Assembly: GCA_036521195.1 (NCBI GenBank)
Contig: DATDID010000009.1
Coordinates: 1,609 to 65,608, forward strand
Direction of reading: 5' to 3'
Length of the DNA: 64,000 nt
Origin: Candidatus Dormiibacterota bacterium
GTDB taxonomy: Bacteria > Chloroflexota > Dormibacteria > Aeolococcales > Aeolococcaceae
The notes beneath the pieces are model-generated. The model saw nothing but the letters and a program-made list of their open reading frames with translations, made no database searches and was not told the DNA's origin. The position numbers were made by a program, and so were the translations under genes. Positions 8,025 through 15,354 of this stretch are shown in pieces; the stretch's first letter is position 1; each line of letters begins with the position of its first letter.

Positions 8025-8289
8025 GCCCTCAGGCGGAGGGTTCGAGCTGCCTCCGTTGGCGCTCGGCGTCGGTTCGACGGGCTCCTCGTGGGGCCGTTCG
8101 GGGCGTGCGATGTCGGTTATCGGTACTGCTCCGGTTGTGACGTGAGTGTTGGAGGTGAGGCCAAAGGTGAAACCGCTCGATTACTCAGCGCTGACTGCTC
8201 AAATCGGCCGTTCCAGATGCCTCTATTCTACCAGCCTGGAGGCCTACTTTGCTCTCCTCCGCGCGGTGCGCTGCACTAGCATCAGTACG

Positions 8290-11235
8290 GTGAAGGACAC
8301 TGTCGCGGACGTAGCGGAAGAGGCTCTCAAGGAGTACCGCCGCAAGCGCGACTTCAAACAGACCCCGGAGCCGAGTGGGGACCAGGTCGGACGTGCGGAC
8401 GCGGACCGATCCGCATGGGATCTCCTGCCGCACGGACACCGCTTCTGCGTGCAGAAACACCGGGCAACGCGGATGCACTTCGACTTCCGACTCGAGCATG
8501 CCGGGGTGCTGCTCTCGTGGGCGATCCCGAGAGGCCCGAGCCTCGATCCGGCCAAGAAGCGCCTGGCCGTACAGACCGAGGACCATCCCATCGATTACGG
8601 CGAGTTCGAGGGCGTGATCCCCTCCGGGTACGGCGCTGGGACGGTGATGCTCTGGGACATCGGCACCTTCGAGTGGATCAAGGAGTCGGCCGAGGACTAC
8701 GAGCGGTCGCGCCTCAAAGGCGACATAAAATTCCGGCTCTCGGGGAGCAAGCTGTCCGGCGAGTTCGCGCTCGTGCACATCGGCGAGCGCGGACAGCAGT
8801 ACGGGGGCAGCAGCGACGGCAGCAAGAACTGGTTGATGCTCAAGAAGCGCGACGCGTCGGTGGTTGAGGGGTACGAGGCGATCGACCGCGATGTTTCGGT
8901 CAAGACCGGCAGAAGCCTGGCTGAGATAGCCAGCGACGGCGGCGGTGATCCAAGGGAGATGCGACGCGCTCGATCGCGGGGCGAGACGCCTCCGGCGACC
9001 GACTCCGCGGTGGGCGAGCCGGTCCGTGCGCCCGCCCCGATGCTGGCGACCTCGGCCGAACGCGCTTTTTCACGCGAGGGCTGGTTCTTTGAGCTGAAGT
9101 ACGACGGGATCCGGGCGATGGTCAGCGTCGCGGGTGACGCGGTCCGCATCACCGGCCGCAGAGGCAAGGACGAGACGTTGCACTACCCCGAGGCACAGGC
9201 GATCCGTGCCGGCATTCGCGCACGGCAGGCAATCGTCGACGGCGAGCTCGTCGTGCTCGACACGGACGGCCGCCCGTCGTTCGAGCGTCTGCAGCAGCGC
9301 ATCAACGTCTCACGCGAGGCCGACGCGCGGCGTCTCGCCGTCGAGCACCCCGTGACGTTCGTCGCCTTCGACCTCGTGCAGCTCGAGGGCCGCGACCTCA
9401 TGGCGACCGAGCTACGCATCCGCAAGAAGACGCTGCGCGAGACCATCGTCGACGCGCCACACATCCTCTTCGCGGAGCACGTCGAACGCGATGGCGTCGC
9501 ACTGTTCGAGGAAGCACGCAAGAACGGCATCGAAGGCATTGTCGCCAAGCGCGCGGACTCGCTGTACCGCCCCGGGCTCCGAACACCCGAGTGGGTGAAG
9601 ATCAAGTCCTGGCGTACCCAGTCGTGCGTGATCGCCGGCTACACAGCCGGCCGCGGTCGCCGCTCCAACCAACTGGGAGCGCTCATCCTCGCCATACAAG
9701 ACAACGACGGCCGCCTCAAACACTGCGGCCAGGTGGGTACCGGCTTCAACGAAAAAAGCCTGCGCGCAATCAAAGAGAAACTCGCCTCCCTGATCGTCGA
9801 CAAATGTCAACTCGACACAACCCCAAGAACAACCGAACCAGCCACCTGGGTACGACCCGAGCTGATCTGCGAAGTCCGTTTCTCGGAATGGACCAGCGAA
9901 GGCATGCTCCGCCACCCCGCCTTCCAAAAACTACGACCCGACCAAGCCCTCGACGACACCGCCCGCGAGCAGCCAACACCCGTCCCACCAAACGCCAAAA
10001 CACAACGCACGTCGCGCAACACCACTGAGCGCTCGCCAGAAGACTCCCGCGACGAGACAAGGCCCGCTGCCCAGTCCCCCGCCGACAACGCACCGAGCCC
10101 CGCCGCCTCAGCGCCGAGACGGTCGCCCCCGCACACATCGCGCATACGACCCAGCCCCGAAACAATTCGGGCAAGGAACAGTCTGGGTCGCCCCGTGGGG
10201 AGCAGCGTCGCCGGAGTGCTTGGCGACGAGGATGCCACGCCCTCCAGAGACACCGACAACCACAAGGAGACCAAGCGCGGAGGCGACGAGGGGACCCCAC
10301 GGGGACAGGACCCAGACACCATCGATGCGGCCCTGAAAACGTTGAGGACGCTGCACGGCAACGCGAGATGGGAAATAGCAGGCAGACGCCTCCCACTGAC
10401 CAACCTGGACAAAGTGCTCTGGCCCGCAGAAGGTCTGACCAAGCGGGACATGATCGAGTACTACGTGCGCATGGCGCCGTACATGATTCCGTACCTGCGG
10501 AACCGACCGCTTTCGATGCAGGTGTTCCCCGACGGCATCGATGGAAAGTCCTTCTGGAGAAAGGACAAACCGGCACATGCGCCGTCGTGGATCGAAGCAT
10601 GGACGTACCACGGTGAGAAGACCAAGACCTACATCGTCGTCAACGAGGTCGCGACACTCGCATGGGTCGCCAACGCGGGTGTCATCGATCTGCATCCATG
10701 GCATTCACGCATCGACGAACCCGGGAATCCCGATTGGGCCGTCTTCGACCTCGACCCGTTCGAGCCCGCGACGTTCCAGGACGTCATCAACATCGCCAAG
10801 CTGGTCAAAGCCGCGCTCGACCATTACGGGATGCACGGAGTCGTCAAGACCAGCGGGCAGACCGGCCTGCAGATCTACGTCCCCGTCCGCCGCGGGCCGG
10901 ACTACGCGGCCGTGCGCGGCTGGGTGGAGGAGGTCGGCAAGGCGATCGACCAGGCCGCACCGGGTCGCGTCAGCTGGGAATGGGCCGTTGCCAAGCGGAC
11001 CGGGCGCATACGCATCGACTACACGCAGAACATCATCAACAAGACGCTCGCCGCCCCCTACTCGTTGCGTCCTGCGCCCGGCGCGCCGGTATCCACCCCG
11101 ATTACCTGGGAGGAGCTCGACGACCCGCAACTGCGCCCGGATCGGTGGAACATCGCGACGATCGCCCAGCGCATCGAAGAGGTCGGCGATCTCTTCGCGC
11201 CGGCACTGCACGCGGATCAAGACCTCCCGGGCTAG
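8290..11235 (+). CDS. ligD: multidomain NHEJ ligase LigD (phosphoesterase-ligase-polymerase order)
   Basis: GTG at 8290 precedes LKEYRRKRDFKQTPEP (PE domain). Ligase motif I is FELKYDGIRAM, followed by EGIVAKRADSLYRPG. The C-terminal primase-polymerase region has DLHPW, AVFDLDP and VKTSGQTGLQIYVP. Confidence 0.93.
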   Translation: MKDTVADVAEEALKEYRRKRDFKQTPEPSGDQVGRADADRSAWDLLPHGHRFCVQKHRATRMHFDFRLEHAGVLLSWAIPRGPSLDPAKKRLAVQTEDHPIDYGEFEGVIPSGYGAGTVMLWDIGTFEWIKESAEDYERSRLKGDIKFRLSGSKLSGEFALVHIGERGQQYGGSSDGSKNWLMLKKRDASVVEGYEAIDRDVSVKTGRSLAEIASDGGGDPREMRRARSRGETPPATDSAVGEPVRAPAPMLATSAERAFSREGWFFELKYDGIRAMVSVAGDAVRITGRRGKDETLHYPEAQAIRAGIRARQAIVDGELVVLDTDGRPSFERLQQRINVSREADARRLAVEHPVTFVAFDLVQLEGRDLMATELRIRKKTLRETIVDAPHILFAEHVERDGVALFEEARKNGIEGIVAKRADSLYRPGLRTPEWVKIKSWRTQSCVIAGYTAGRGRRSNQLGALILAIQDNDGRLKHCGQVGTGFNEKSLRAIKEKLASLIVDKCQLDTTPRTTEPATWVRPELICEVRFSEWTSEGMLRHPAFQKLRPDQALDDTAREQPTPVPPNAKTQRTSRNTTERSPEDSRDETRPAAQSPADNAPSPAASAPRRSPPHTSRIRPSPETIRARNSLGRPVGSSVAGVLGDEDATPSRDTDNHKETKRGGDEGTPRGQDPDTIDAALKTLRTLHGNARWEIAGRRLPLTNLDKVLWPAEGLTKRDMIEYYVRMAPYMIPYLRNRPLSMQVFPDGIDGKSFWRKDKPAHAPSWIEAWTYHGEKTKTYIVVNEVATLAWVANAGVIDLHPWHSRIDEPGNPDWAVFDLDPFEPATFQDVINIAKLVKAALDHYGMHGVVKTSGQTGLQIYVPVRRGPDYAAVRGWVEEVGKAIDQAAPGRVSWEWAVAKRTGRIRIDYTQNIINKTLAAPYSLRPAPGAPVSTPITWEELDDPQLRPDRWNIATIAQRIEEVGDLFAPALHADQDLPG

Positions 11236-11953: not shown

Positions 11954-12475
11954 ATGGCGGTGCTGCTGCTCAATGCCTCGTTGCAGCCGCTCAACGTGAT
12001 CAGTCACAGGCGGCTGGTCGTCCTGTTGACCAAGGAACGGGTTGCGTTTGTCGACGAGGCGGCGGAGCGCGCCGCGGCCGAAGCGCTCGCCGGCCGGCGG
12101 CTCCCCGAGGGTGTGGTGATCGTCCGCCTTCTGCGCACGATTCACGTCCCACGCCGGTTGCTCCGCCCGAACCGGCGCAATCTGCTGCTGCGCGACGACC
12201 ACACCTGCCAGTACTGCGGCCGGCTCGGCACGGCCGCCGACCTCACCGTCGACCACGTGATCCCCGTGTCCCGGGGCGGTGCGCCGGACAAATGGGAGAA
12301 CGTCGTGATCGCGTGCCGGAAGTGCAACTGGCGCAAGGCGAACCATCGCCCGGAGGAGGTCGGCCTGCTGTTGCGGCGCAAACCGGTCCCGCTCACGCAG
12401 GAGTACGCGCACATCATCTTCCTGCGCTATCCGGAGCTGAAGGAGGCGTACGACCGCCTGCTCGCCGTCGCCTGA
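11954..12475 (+). CDS. HNH endonuclease (McrA-like, about 170 aa)
   Basis: Contains CQYCGR...DLTVDHVIPVSRGG...ENVVIACRKCNWRKANH, i.e. CxxC, DH, N, CxxC. Confidence 0.85.
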   Translation: MAVLLLNASLQPLNVISHRRLVVLLTKERVAFVDEAAERAAAEALAGRRLPEGVVIVRLLRTIHVPRRLLRPNRRNLLLRDDHTCQYCGRLGTAADLTVDHVIPVSRGGAPDKWENVVIACRKCNWRKANHRPEEVGLLLRRKPVPLTQEYAHIIFLRYPELKEAYDRLLAVA

Positions 12476-12521: not shown

Positions 12522-13376
12522 ATGCCTCGATCCATGTGGCGCGGGGCCATCAGCTTCGGCATGGTGGCAATTCCCGTGCGGCTGTACCTCGCTACCGAGT
12601 CGAAGAGCGTCTCGTTCCGGCTGCTGTGCCCGAATGACCAGACGCCGGTGCGCAACAAGCGCTGGTGCCCCGAGGAGGATCGCGAGATCGGCTGGAGCGA
12701 TGCGCTCCGGGGCTACGAGGTCGGCAAGGACGAGTACGTGGTCATCAGCGACTCCGACCTCGACCAGTTGCCGCTGACGACGACGCACAGCATCGACATC
12801 ATCGAGTTCTGCCCCGACTCGGAGATCGAGGCAGGCGTGTACCTGAAAAGCGCCTACTACCTCGAGCCCGAGGCCGTCGGCGCGAAGCCCTACGCGCTCC
12901 TCCGCCAGGCACTCGAGAAGACCGGCAAGGTGGCCATCGGCAAGATCGCCCTCCGCGACCGCGAGCACCTCTGCCGTCTCGCGCTGCACGAGCAGGGCCT
13001 GCTGCTCAACACATTGCACTGGCCGGATGAGATCCGCTCCGCGGGCGAGCTCTCCATCCCCGACGAGAACCTCGACGTCAAGAAGGCTGAGCTCGACATG
13101 GCGGTGATGCTCATCGAGAACCTGAGCGCTCATTTCGATCCCGCCCGCCACCACGACTCATATCGCGAGGCGCTGCTCGAAGTCGTCGAATCGAAGCTCA
13201 CCAACGAGCCGATCAAGCGGCCGGAAGCGCCCGAGCAGGGCAAGGTCACGGACCTCATGGCCGCACTCAAAGCGTCGGTCGAAGCCGCGAAGTCGCGCAA
13301 GAGCGACGCTGCCGGGAGCGAGGCGTCGGACGACGCCGAAACGGCGGAACCGGCGCGCCGGCGCCGCGCTTCCTGA
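12522..13376 (+). CDS. ku: Ku protein (NHEJ end-binding)
   Basis: N-terminus MPRSMWRGAISFGMVAIPVRLYLAT and a basic, Ala-rich C-terminal tail. A TATACT hexamer lies at 12507-12512, just upstream. Confidence 0.93.
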   Translation: MPRSMWRGAISFGMVAIPVRLYLATESKSVSFRLLCPNDQTPVRNKRWCPEEDREIGWSDALRGYEVGKDEYVVISDSDLDQLPLTTTHSIDIIEFCPDSEIEAGVYLKSAYYLEPEAVGAKPYALLRQALEKTGKVAIGKIALRDREHLCRLALHEQGLLLNTLHWPDEIRSAGELSIPDENLDVKKAELDMAVMLIENLSAHFDPARHHDSYREALLEVVESKLTNEPIKRPEAPEQGKVTDLMAALKASVEAAKSRKSDAAGSEASDDAETAEPARRRRAS

Positions 13377-13393: not shown

Positions 13394-14503
13394 GTGGCGA
13401 GGACAGCAACGTCACGCGCCGTCGCGCCGGCGCTCGAGGAGCCACTGCTCTTCCGCACCCCGACGCCGCCACTCCTCCCGGGGCACATCCCGCTCGAGGA
13501 GTCGGTTCCGTGCTCGGACCCGTTCGACGATCACGACTGGCTTTTCAGCATCGACTGGGACGGCGCGCGCTCTCTCCTCTACCTCGACCCCGACAGCCCC
13601 GCGCGGGTCCAGGGTGAGACGCTCTGCGAACTCGGCCGGCGGTTTCCCGACGTCCTCGAGACGGTGGTCGCTCCGGACGGCCGGGCTGCGGTGCTCGACG
13701 GGGTCATCGCTGTGCTCGACGCGCAGGGCAGGCCGGATCTCACCGCCCTCGGCAGACGCCTGGCCGCCGGACCGGCACTGGCTGGCGAGCTCCCCGCGGT
13801 CTATCTCGCGTTTGACGTCCTCCATCTCGACGGCCGCCCGGTCACCGGCTGGGCGCTCGAGCGTCGCGTTGAGGCACTGAGCGCGTTTGCCGGGAGCGGC
13901 GACGTGCTCCAGGTACCGGACCACGTGCGTGGCCGGGGCAGCGCGCTCGCGGCAGCCGCCACCGCTCGCAGCCTCCCCGCACTGCTGGCGCGCCGGGCGA
14001 GAGCTCCGTACCGGCCCGGTCTGGCATCGCCGGATCGCCTCCGGATCCCACTCCTCGAGCAGACGACCTGCGTCATCGCGGGCATCATCGAACGCCGTCT
14101 CGGCGCTCCCCGGCTCATCCTCGGCGAGATGGTCGCGGGACGGCTGGTGTTTGCGGGTCAGGTGGAAGGCCCGCACGACAAAGTGGTCTCGCGCTGGCTC
14201 GCGCAGCAGGCGGCAAGCCTCACCGTCGGTGCCGCGATGCTCGACGGCGTTCAACCGTTTGACGCGACGTGGCTGCGACCCGCGTTGACAGCCACGATCC
14301 GCCACCAGGGCAGGGGTGCCGGCGGCGCGTTGTTGCAGCCGTCGCTCCTCGCGGTCCGCGACGACGTGGAGCCGCGCTGGTGCGTGCGCCGTCCACCGGT
14401 CGCGGCACCGGCGGACGCCGCTGAACGCTTCGGGTTCGCGCCAACGTTGATCGTTCCCCTTCCGCTGGGCGACGCCGCACTCCTGCCCCGGCCTCGAACA
14501 TGA
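13394..14503 (+). CDS. ATP-dependent DNA ligase-like protein with degenerate catalytic motifs
   Basis: Ligase-like layout (WLFSIDWDGAR, AVLDGVIAVLD, YLAFDVLHLDGRPV, APYRPG). Motif I reads D-W-D-G-A-R where K-x-D-G-x-R is expected. Confidence 0.7.
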   Translation: MARTATSRAVAPALEEPLLFRTPTPPLLPGHIPLEESVPCSDPFDDHDWLFSIDWDGARSLLYLDPDSPARVQGETLCELGRRFPDVLETVVAPDGRAAVLDGVIAVLDAQGRPDLTALGRRLAAGPALAGELPAVYLAFDVLHLDGRPVTGWALERRVEALSAFAGSGDVLQVPDHVRGRGSALAAAATARSLPALLARRARAPYRPGLASPDRLRIPLLEQTTCVIAGIIERRLGAPRLILGEMVAGRLVFAGQVEGPHDKVVSRWLAQQAASLTVGAAMLDGVQPFDATWLRPALTATIRHQGRGAGGALLQPSLLAVRDDVEPRWCVRRPPVAAPADAAERFGFAPTLIVPLPLGDAALLPRPRT

Positions 14504-15354
14504 CCGGCGGGGTGCTGATGTGCCCGCCGAACCACTTCGGCATCGAGTACGAGATCAACCCGTGGATGCACGTGGCCGTCCAGGTGGACCATGCGCTGGC
14601 GGAGGAGCAGTGGCAGGCGCTGCATCGCACCTACGTCGACATGGGTGTCGACATCGAGCTTGCGACGCCGGTGGCCGGGCTCCCCGACATGGTGTTCACT
14701 GCGAACGCGGCGGTCGTCTGGGACGGGCGCGCTGTCCTCGCGAACTTCCACCATCGCGAGCGCCAGGGCGAGGAGTCGCACTGGCGGGCTGAGCTGGAAC
14801 GGCTGCACTTCGAGGTGCACGAGCTGCCTCGATCGCTGTCGTTCGAGGGTGCCGGCGACGCGCTCTTCGTCGGCGACCGCCTCTTCTGCGGCACCGGATT
14901 CCGGACCGATCGTGAGTCGCACCGGCCTGTTGCCCGCATCCTCGAGGTCGAGGTGGTCACGCTCGAGCTGGTCGACCCGCGCTTCTATCACCTCGACACG
15001 TGCTTCTGTCCGCTTGACGCGAACACGGTGATCGCCGCTCCGGAGGCCTTTTCCTCGGCATCCGCACAGCTCATTCGCCAGCTTGTCCCGAACCTCGTCG
15101 AAGTCTCGGTCGAGGTGGCCGCCGGCTTTGCCTGCAACGCGATGCCGCTGGGAACCCAGGTCGTCTCGTCGCTCACCATCGCCCAGCTCGAAGAGCCGCT
15201 CCGAGCAGCCGGATTCACGATCGTCCCGATGGCGATGGGGGAGTTCCTCAAGGCAGGCGGCGGAGTGCGCTGCCTCTCCCTGCCGCTCGGCACCGGCAAC
15301 CCGAACGGGCTTGTCACCCCGCGCAACGCCCAGGGAAGCTCCACCAACCTCTGA
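14500..15354 (+). CDS. pentein-superfamily enzyme (amidinotransferase / dimethylarginine dimethylaminohydrolase-like)
   Basis: Contains CPPNHFGIEYEINPWM, HLDTCFCPL and the C-terminal nucleophile context GGGVRCLSLPL. ATGA overlap with the preceding gene. Confidence 0.7.
   Translation: MTGGVLMCPPNHFGIEYEINPWMHVAVQVDHALAEEQWQALHRTYVDMGVDIELATPVAGLPDMVFTANAAVVWDGRAVLANFHHRERQGEESHWRAELERLHFEVHELPRSLSFEGAGDALFVGDRLFCGTGFRTDRESHRPVARILEVEVVTLELVDPRFYHLDTCFCPLDANTVIAAPEAFSSASAQLIRQLVPNLVEVSVEVAAGFACNAMPLGTQVVSSLTIAQLEEPLRAAGFTIVPMAMGEFLKAGGGVRCLSLPLGTGNPNGLVTPRNAQGSSTNL

Follow-up and report, generated by a model that had tools for sequence, protein, structure and literature searches.

Bacterial nonhomologous end joining (NHEJ) is commonly portrayed as a minimal apparatus of just two proteins, Ku and LigD. 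What role might be played by an additional gene that directly follows ku and encodes a DNA ligase-like protein without the adenylylation lysine? The question is posed by a 64,000 nucleotide stretch of DNA (termed ‘the window’ below) from a Candidatus Dormiibacterota bacterium (GTDB class Dormibacteria, family Aeolococcaceae; assembly GCA_036521195.1, contig DATDID010000009.1, positions 1,609 to 65,608 of the forward strand). The gene in question (13394..14503 of the window, + strand) starts with GTG and encodes a protein of 369 amino acids, without internal stops, that is referred to here as the ‘pseudo-ligase’. The protein probably assists in the repair of DNA breaks as a so far undescribed, non-enzymatic factor, and its host lineage is a single family of uncultured soil bacteria, in which it always travels with ku. 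The partner gene itself (12522..13376, + strand; 284 amino acids) is readily recognized as ku (PF02735, E 3e-42; TIGR02772, 285 bits) and is the constant genomic companion of the pseudo-ligase.

A preliminary description of this locus, made from the sequence alone, had delimited the same reading frame, and that frame is real; the intergenic distance between the ku stop and the pseudo-ligase start amounts to 17 nucleotides, one fewer than had been given there. The frame offers no start codon before the GTG at 13394, and no further ATG, GTG or TTG precedes the conserved region.

Fold and active site of the pseudo-ligase

Alignment of the protein to ligase profile models, as the preliminary description had suggested, revealed significant homology at scores that lie below the curated limits. 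The TIGR02779 model is matched with an E value of 2e-31 (residues 42-330 of the protein against positions 9-300 of the model’s 302) and a score of 109.3 bits, below the cut-off of 227.75, while PF01068 (24.6 versus 26.2) and PF04679 (22.4 versus 27.5) both fall just under their gathering thresholds. Pairwise alignment to the LigD encoded in the same window (8146..11235, + strand; an intact three-domain PE-Lig-Pol protein with canonical motifs, delimited as the longest open reading frame and with an uncertain start codon) gives 30% identity across 315 columns (E 5e-32), and the structures of the ligase domain (LigDom) of Mycobacterium tuberculosis (Mtb) LigD are matched by sequence with E values of 5e-14 (6NHX) and 3e-13 (1VS0). 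When the family alignment was supplied to AlphaFold2 (AF2), a model was obtained with a pLDDT of 85.8 and a pTM of 0.83, in which the nucleotidyltransferase (NTase) and OB domains are ordered and low confidence is assigned to residues 1-17 and to most of residues 340-369. The top Foldseek matches to that model are the Mtb LigDom structures 6NHX, 1VS0 and 6NHZ (E 7e-23 to 1e-21, with TM scores of at most 0.72 by target length), followed by archaeal and human ligases. As modelled, the pseudo-ligase is a stand-alone copy of the LigD-type NHEJ ligase domain that retains the NTase and OB ligase fold, flanked by family-specific N-terminal (approximately residues 1-35) and C-terminal (approximately 336-369) extensions.

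Placed beside the Mtb ligase domain (Rv0938, residues ~450-759; 1VS0, 6NHX, 6NHZ; TIGR02779), the protein is alike in its full-length homology, its fold and its association with ku, and has in common with active ligases 36 core positions, including W55, G57, R59, D102, G103, D141, R322 and D324. Unlike the Mtb domain, it lacks the lysine nucleophile, is altered at nine of ten ATP/AMP contacts, scores under the curated cut-offs and carries its own N- and C-terminal extensions together with 42 family-specific conserved positions. A second useful comparison is with the LigC-type enzymes, stand-alone ATP-dependent ligases that act as back-up ligases in NHEJ and base excision repair. Two such paralogues (L002 and L003) are encoded in the same genome and, as with the pseudo-ligase, comprise a single ligase domain without Pol or PE domains. 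They are catalytically intact and are not adjacent to ku, and L002 is without the C-terminal tail that is described below; in each of these respects the pseudo-ligase is the opposite.

The changes in the active site extend across motifs I, Ia, III, IV and V. In motif I, the ELKYDGIR of the window’s LigD is represented by SIDWDGAR (remnant D-W-D-G-A-R, 13553..13570, + strand), in which the adenylylation lysine is replaced by Asp54 and the arginine is kept as Arg59. The motif Ia arginine that contacts the ATP gamma-phosphate (Arg501 in Mtb LigD) has undergone a charge reversal to Glu75 (codon 13616..13618, + strand). Motif III, which reads VDGELVV in LigD, has become LDGVIAV (remnant L-D-G-V-I-A-V-L-D, 13694..13720, + strand), with Val104 as the equivalent of Glu530, and motif IV has changed from EGIVAKR to PALLARR (P-A-L-L-A-R-R, 13976..13996, + strand), with Pro195 in place of Glu613 and an invariant Arg200 in place of Lys618. 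Finally, the WVKIK of motif V corresponds to RLRIP (R-L-R-I-P, 14036..14050, + strand), where Arg215 replaces the tryptophan, Arg217 replaces Lys635 and Pro219 replaces Lys637. The readings of motifs I, III and IV had already been proposed in the preliminary description, and the same correspondences emerge from alignments to the window’s LigD and to 6NHX and 1VS0; the change in motif V was absent from that account and was added by alignment. The codons quoted there for motif I (gac tgg gac ggc gcg cgc) are present, at 13553-13570 rather than at about 13552-13569.

The ten residues that contact ATP or AMP in Mtb LigD, as set out in a structural review of that enzyme (PMC8656161, section 6), provide a more complete measure of what has been lost. 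These contacts were mapped via alignment to the Mtb LigDom (where chain index plus 449 equals Mtb numbering, as verified on K481, E530 and E613), and their states were counted in a curated alignment of 60 sequences (A1) of the ‘D-type’ family, named for the aspartate of motif I. Only one of the ten, Arg486, is kept, as Arg59 (60/60). At the position of Lys481 (residue 54), aspartate is found in 56 sequences and glutamate in four; Glu479 has become Ser52 (58/60), Arg501 has become Glu75 (56/60, the residue being arginine in all active relatives) and Glu530 has become Val104 (58/60). The metal ligand Glu613 corresponds to a variable position (195), occupied by P, A, S, V or T, while Lys618 is replaced by Arg200 (60/60), Arg629 by Ala211 (52/60), Lys635 by Arg217 (57/60) and Lys637 by Ala or Pro219. 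The adenine-stacking phenylalanine of motif IIIa is also variable (T18/F17/I9/S7/C6 of 60). All ten contacts are kept in the window’s LigD, in its LigC-like paralogue and in the active Ku-adjacent ligases of sister families. Judged from these alignments, the ATP site of the D-type family is comprehensively dismantled, with two fixed charge reversals, and ligation by the lysyl-AMP route is predicted not to be possible for a protein without the lysine nucleophile.

That condition is a property of the family, rather than of one strain. A search of 5.8 billion proteins identified 142 relatives, 120 of which are listed in the resulting alignment, down to 43% identity; their database names are ‘hypothetical protein’ (for entries from metagenome-assembled genomes, MAGs, of Candidatus Dormibacterota) and, in JGI records, ‘bifunctional non-homologous end joining protein LigD’. 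The position of the motif I nucleophile is covered by 110 of these 120 listed rows, with aspartate in 105, glutamate in five and lysine in none, and across the 120 the motif III glutamate is replaced by valine in 116, the motif IV lysine by arginine in all 120 and the first motif V lysine by arginine in 116. All of the Ku-adjacent orthologues retrieved from related genomes read S-[IV]-[DE]-W-[DE]-G at motif I, and rare members of the family carry Asn or Gly at position 54 (P0134, P0140). Lysine is scarce throughout: it accounts for at most 7% of any column of alignment A1, and the median member has none (range 0-4). Because most members have no lysine at all, lysyl-AMP chemistry would be impossible for most of them wherever a displaced nucleophile might be sought. 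An HMMER profile search of 1.84 billion representatives recovered approximately 24 D-type clusters (at 50% identity) with scores of at least 238 bits, below which the scores fall to those of ordinary ligases at 218 bits or less.

Outside of the D-type family, approximately 20 more stand-alone LigD-like proteins without the motif I lysine were observed among the top 150 representatives (P0144-P0248), with Leu, Arg, Ala, Ser, Asn or Asp as the replacement. Because of these additional lysine-less proteins, loss of the nucleophile in NHEJ-type ligase domains seems, as far as alignment can tell, to be recurrent.

The family also displays the marks of continued selection. Between the closest pairs of genomes, the ratio of nonsynonymous to synonymous substitution rates (dN/dS, NG86 method) is 0.097-0.141 for the pseudo-ligase, while the controls from the same genome pairs give 0.075-0.113 for Ku, 0.140 for LigD and 0.04-0.05 for the neighbouring HNH gene. 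When conservation within the D-type family was contrasted with that in 101 catalytically intact ligases from the representative search, 36 positions were found to be conserved in both groups (the structural core), 24 that are conserved in active ligases were found to be relaxed in the D-type family, and 42 were at least 90% conserved in the D-type family only. Among these last are C40, S52, D54, E75, V104, H144, R200, R215, R217, C226, W268, T301, R307 and W329. The cysteines merit a separate remark: alignment A1 has two without exception, Cys40 and Cys330, and a third, Cys226, that is conserved at 92%, and Cys40 is specific to the dead family. Because the fold and the selection on it are kept, and because 42 family-only positions and a conserved tail have been gained, the overall pattern indicates a change of function and not decay. 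By the combination of homology, lost catalytic residues and purifying selection, the protein is, on the evidence of its sequence, a pseudoenzyme.

The preliminary description had reached much the same view, and its central claims fared well. Its proposal of a pseudo-ligase is supported by the homology, by the lost catalytic residues, by a dN/dS of 0.10-0.14 and by the 42 newly conserved positions; its claim of selection rather than decay agrees with a dN/dS of about 0.1 that is comparable to those of Ku and LigD. Of the observations that it had named as speaking against it, two could be looked for in silico, a lysine displaced elsewhere at motif I and orthologues that retain KxDG. Neither was encountered, given at most 7% lysine per column (median of zero per member) and a motif I position that is D in 105 and E in five of the 110 covering rows.

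Linkage to ku and descent

Which partner does such a protein follow through evolution? Among 121 genomes sampled from the class, 108 of which contain ku, D-type orthologues (E <1e-45) occur only in the window’s own GTDB family. Among the 27 other genomes of that family the pseudo-ligase is present in 24, which are exactly the 24 that carry ku, and in none of the three that are ku-negative. In all but one of these 24 genomes (23), the next gene after ku, in the same orientation, is the pseudo-ligase; in the remaining one (G224) the two genes are on different contigs. Gaps between the two genes measure 3-18 nucleotides in longer contigs, and the recurrent order on related long contigs is ligD, (DUF4232), HNH, ku and pseudo-ligase. 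The pair appears to be indifferent to its surroundings: in L027, genes for an ABC transporter are inserted upstream of ku with no effect on the gap to the pseudo-ligase, and in L028, PhoU/PHO4 genes lie between the pseudo-ligase and a pentein gene while ku is still adjacent. Most of the carriers also possess a full-length LigD that scores above the curated cut-off (25 of the 31 genomes sampled), and ligD is distant in several of them, 47-55 kb away in G220 and G233 and on another contig in G236 and G227, with the ku-gene pair intact. Because the pair persists even without ligD nearby, the pseudo-ligase tracks Ku and not LigD.

Two members of the same GTDB family (G155 and G308; genus g6) present a separate curiosity, in that neither yielded a LigD ligase domain with a score above the curated cut-off, although at 81-92% completeness the domain may simply have been missed. 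G155 has both ku and the pseudo-ligase, while G308 gave only fragmentary ligase-like matches; in these two genomes a LigC-like ligase is found beside a gene for a Pol domain, together with a separate Pol-containing frame of 576 amino acids. The window genome itself is well supplied with intact ligases (LigD, a 316-amino-acid ligase, a LigC-like ligase and a 565-amino-acid ligase), and genomes with an active Ku-adjacent ligase also contain a separate ligase-like reading frame directly beside a Pol-domain reading frame. Because those genomes too carry an extra ligase-like frame, ligase redundancy is general in the class.

The origin of the family can be traced through its relatives. In sister families of the Dormibacteria, ku is likewise followed by a stand-alone ligase-like gene, of approximately 350-400 codons, and a maximum-likelihood tree unites all such Ku-adjacent genes of the class in a single clade (support 99/97), apart from the ligase domains of LigD. 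The stem branch of the D-type family is long, at 1.1 substitutions per site. On these phylogenetic grounds, the D-type family is shown to descend from an active ligase that was encoded directly downstream of ku in the ancestor of the class. Modern active versions (L012-L015 and L017) have in common with the D-type family their clade, their position after ku, a similar size and a hydrophobic-proline tail; they differ from it in that all of their catalytic motifs and ATP contacts are intact, and they are only ~30% identical to the window protein.

A third group of Ku-adjacent relatives, the ‘R-type’ (L016, L023 and L024, from G110, G053 and G041), also follows ku, belongs to the same clade and has lost the motif I lysine and both lysines of motif V. 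It has done so in a different manner than the D-type family, with K to R in motif I (EVRWDG), R501 to Q, E530 to I or C (DG[IC]), the motif IV lysine kept, WLLVQ (L/Q) in motif V and histidine in motif VI. At the R-type loci another ligase-like reading frame was seen ~800 nucleotides downstream. In addition, one protein of the otherwise active clade (L018, G074:C304) retains the lysine of motif I and lacks Arg629 and, in motif V, both lysines (WLVVE); going by these residues, it could represent an intermediate state or a third, independent case of decay. Approximately unbiased (AU) testing of a tree in which the D-type and R-type are held together gave p 0.35, a value with which one loss or two are both compatible, and in the best tree the D-type is grouped with the active clade at a support of only 79/59.

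The C-terminal extension adds a further link among these proteins. In the window it contains the peptide F-A-P-T-L-I-V-P-L-P-L-G-D (14435..14473, + strand), which is predicted to be disordered and is a candidate docking motif; its pattern in the family is F348-x-P350-T351-[LV]-[LI]-x-[PA]-L356-P357-[LM], in which F348, P350, T351, L356 and P357 are invariant. Tails that end in a hydrophobic-proline sequence after the OB domain are found in the active (...DLTRFPF), R-type (...LPQLPF) and D-type (...LP[LIF]) groups, and L002, the window genome’s ligase that is not linked to Ku, is without such a tail. Because it is present in all three Ku-linked groups and absent from L002, the tail probably dates back to the ancestor of the Ku-linked stand-alone ligases and has been kept in the dead forms. 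A canonical clamp-binding motif, which begins with glutamine (QL[SD]LF or QLxLxL), was considered for this peptide and rejected, with none of 60 family tails matching; the T-L-L-x-P-L of the tail resembles QLSLPL only without the glutamine.

Two further genes flank the pair in the window. Upstream, an HNH endonuclease gene (11954..12475, + strand; 173 amino acids) ends 46 nucleotides before ku and is a context gene, whose membership in the unit is only a candidate one. It is conserved upstream of ku in most related loci, its dN/dS (0.04-0.09) points to tighter constraint than that of Ku, and it may be an NHEJ-linked nuclease. Downstream, a pentein/DDAH-like gene (14500..15354, + strand) overlaps the pseudo-ligase stop (ATGA) and is a variable neighbour: the overlap is seen in the window and in L026, and the gene is missing from that spot in L027. 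Membership of the locus in an anti-phage defence system was considered and set aside, in that searches of PADLOC-DB gave no match for the pseudo-ligase, Ku or the pentein gene, and only weak PtuB-like or generic HNH matches for the HNH gene.

Possible roles in end joining

From its co-occurrence with, and adjacency to, ku we infer that an accessory role in end joining, such as the end-bridging or regulation of LigD that the preliminary description had put forward, is plausible for the pseudo-ligase, and the reading we find moderately probable is that of a Ku-partnered, non-catalytic component of NHEJ of the scaffold type. According to this model, the protein would be co-expressed with Ku from the same operon and would use its conserved and disordered C-terminal peptide to dock to a partner, for which Ku is the most plausible candidate. 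It could then act as a third, non-catalytic component of end joining, as a scaffold that stabilizes or organizes the complex of Ku with DNA ends, and/or could hand those ends to a competent LigD or LigC. A bolder version, which we consider possible though somewhat doubtful, is that of a three-component NHEJ in which Ku is joined by an obligate, docked, ligase-fold subunit that bridges ends without catalysis, while LigD or LigC performs the sealing, and in which the structural job has long been the main one. Three types of catalytic loss are found in Ku-adjacent ligases (the D-type, the R-type of a sister family and the motif V-less L018); if catalysis has been lost more than once at this position, the main selected job of these proteins may long have been structural.

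Eukaryotic end joining offers an analogy. Catalytically inactive Lig4 supports vertebrate NHEJ in a structural capacity (PMC9638927, PMC10858965, PMC11754673), which is likewise a case of a ligase-fold protein that aids end joining without catalysis while another ligase seals. The differences are that ligase IV is normally also a catalyst, with its dead versions having been engineered, whereas the dead state here is natural, fixed and located in a separate gene, and that any orthology between the two exists only at the level of the shared ligase superfamily.

Several points weigh against the scaffold reading. The functional links are all genomic, and the genomes are all MAGs. The motif Ia arginine of DNA ligases has a role at the DNA backbone, as established by work on the Chlorella virus ligase, and its loss, together with the presence of Asp54 and Glu75, would argue against the clamping of a nick or DNA end by the NTase face; the window protein also has a pI of 6.3, although the family median is 8.7. 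In addition, the residues of the Mtb LigD ligase domain that are reported to contact the Ku C-terminus (D522, K579 and L580) are not conserved, their counterparts being G96, E160 and A161. Because they map to non-conserved or charge-reversed positions, the three residues lend no support to use of the same Ku interface as in the Mtb ligase domain.

The rival explanations draw upon much of the same evidence. A dead domain that is under selection and linked to ku is as expected for a negative regulator or decoy as for a scaffold: it would vie with LigD or LigC for binding to Ku or to DNA ends, and thereby throttle or time mutagenic joining. To compete for the same docking site, it would need a tail of the kind it has, akin to the one on the active Ku-adjacent ligases. 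This possibility, which we judge to be unlikely, is indistinguishable in silico from a positive scaffold; an integral subunit would explain the one-to-one retention with ku across a whole family, and the 42 newly conserved positions, at least equally well. The remodelled pocket might instead house a new chemistry, with Asp54 and Glu75, in combination with Arg59, Arg200 and Arg217, forming a different active site, possibly that of a hydrolase acting upon 5'-adenylylated or other phosphorylated DNA ends, or a phosphate or nucleotide sensor. In accord with such an idea, Asp/Glu54, Glu75, Arg200 and Arg217 are each fixed in 93-100% of members, and the arginines of motif VI (Arg322) and motif I (Arg59) are invariant. 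Yet the adenine and ribose contacts are lost (E479S, E530V and the variable motif IIIa phenylalanine), the metal ligand Glu613 has given way to a variable P/A/S/V/T, the residue at position 54 is Asn or Gly in the rare members P0134 and P0140, and the fixed charges could be mere salt bridges that fill an empty pocket. We assign to this idea only a small chance.

Explanations that remove the protein from end joining, or from function altogether, fare worse. The overlap of the pentein gene with the pseudo-ligase stop (ATGA, in the window and in L026) might point to a passenger of the ku operon or to a partner of a pentein-type enzyme. In L027 and L028, however, the pentein gene is missing or displaced while ku stays adjacent, the pseudo-ligase is present or absent exactly as ku is across 27 related genomes, and the protein descends from a Ku-adjacent NHEJ ligase, all of which leave the chance of an unrelated function smaller still. 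Scores under all of the curated family cut-offs might suggest a pseudogene in decay, or a normal ligase damaged in this one strain; that idea is contradicted by a dN/dS of ~0.1, by frames that are intact in orthologues down to 43% identity, by the same substitutions being fixed family-wide and by a confident AF2 fold. Refuted by the motif states of the homologues, by dN/dS and by the family-wide loss of contacts, it retains practically no probability.

Significance for bacterial end joining

The literature searched, the coverage of which excluded most subscription journals, contained no account of a ligase paralogue that naturally lacks the lysine and is linked to Ku. The analysis supports the view that a non-catalytic derivative of the NHEJ ligase domain has been fixed as a partner of Ku. 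In the text of a large domain-level census of NHEJ, the words ‘catalytic’ and ‘lysine’ each have 0 occurrences (PMC7719229), and because catalytic residues are not considered, a census at the level of domains would count the pseudo-ligase as a functional LIG domain. The JGI label of a bifunctional LigD protein, applied to a dead family, represents a corresponding problem of annotation.

The presence of an active, an R-type and a D-type series within one bacterial class provides a tractable system in which to follow the change from enzyme to scaffold. If the scaffold reading is true, the family represents an experiment of nature on the structural contribution of NHEJ ligases, the eukaryotic proof of which needed an engineered dead Lig4, and if the three-component version is true, the subunit would stand as a natural bacterial equivalent of ligase IV/XRCC4 in its scaffold role. 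For the uncultured soil bacteria that maintain it, a conserved dead ligase that is locked to Ku would add a non-enzymatic component to bacterial NHEJ.

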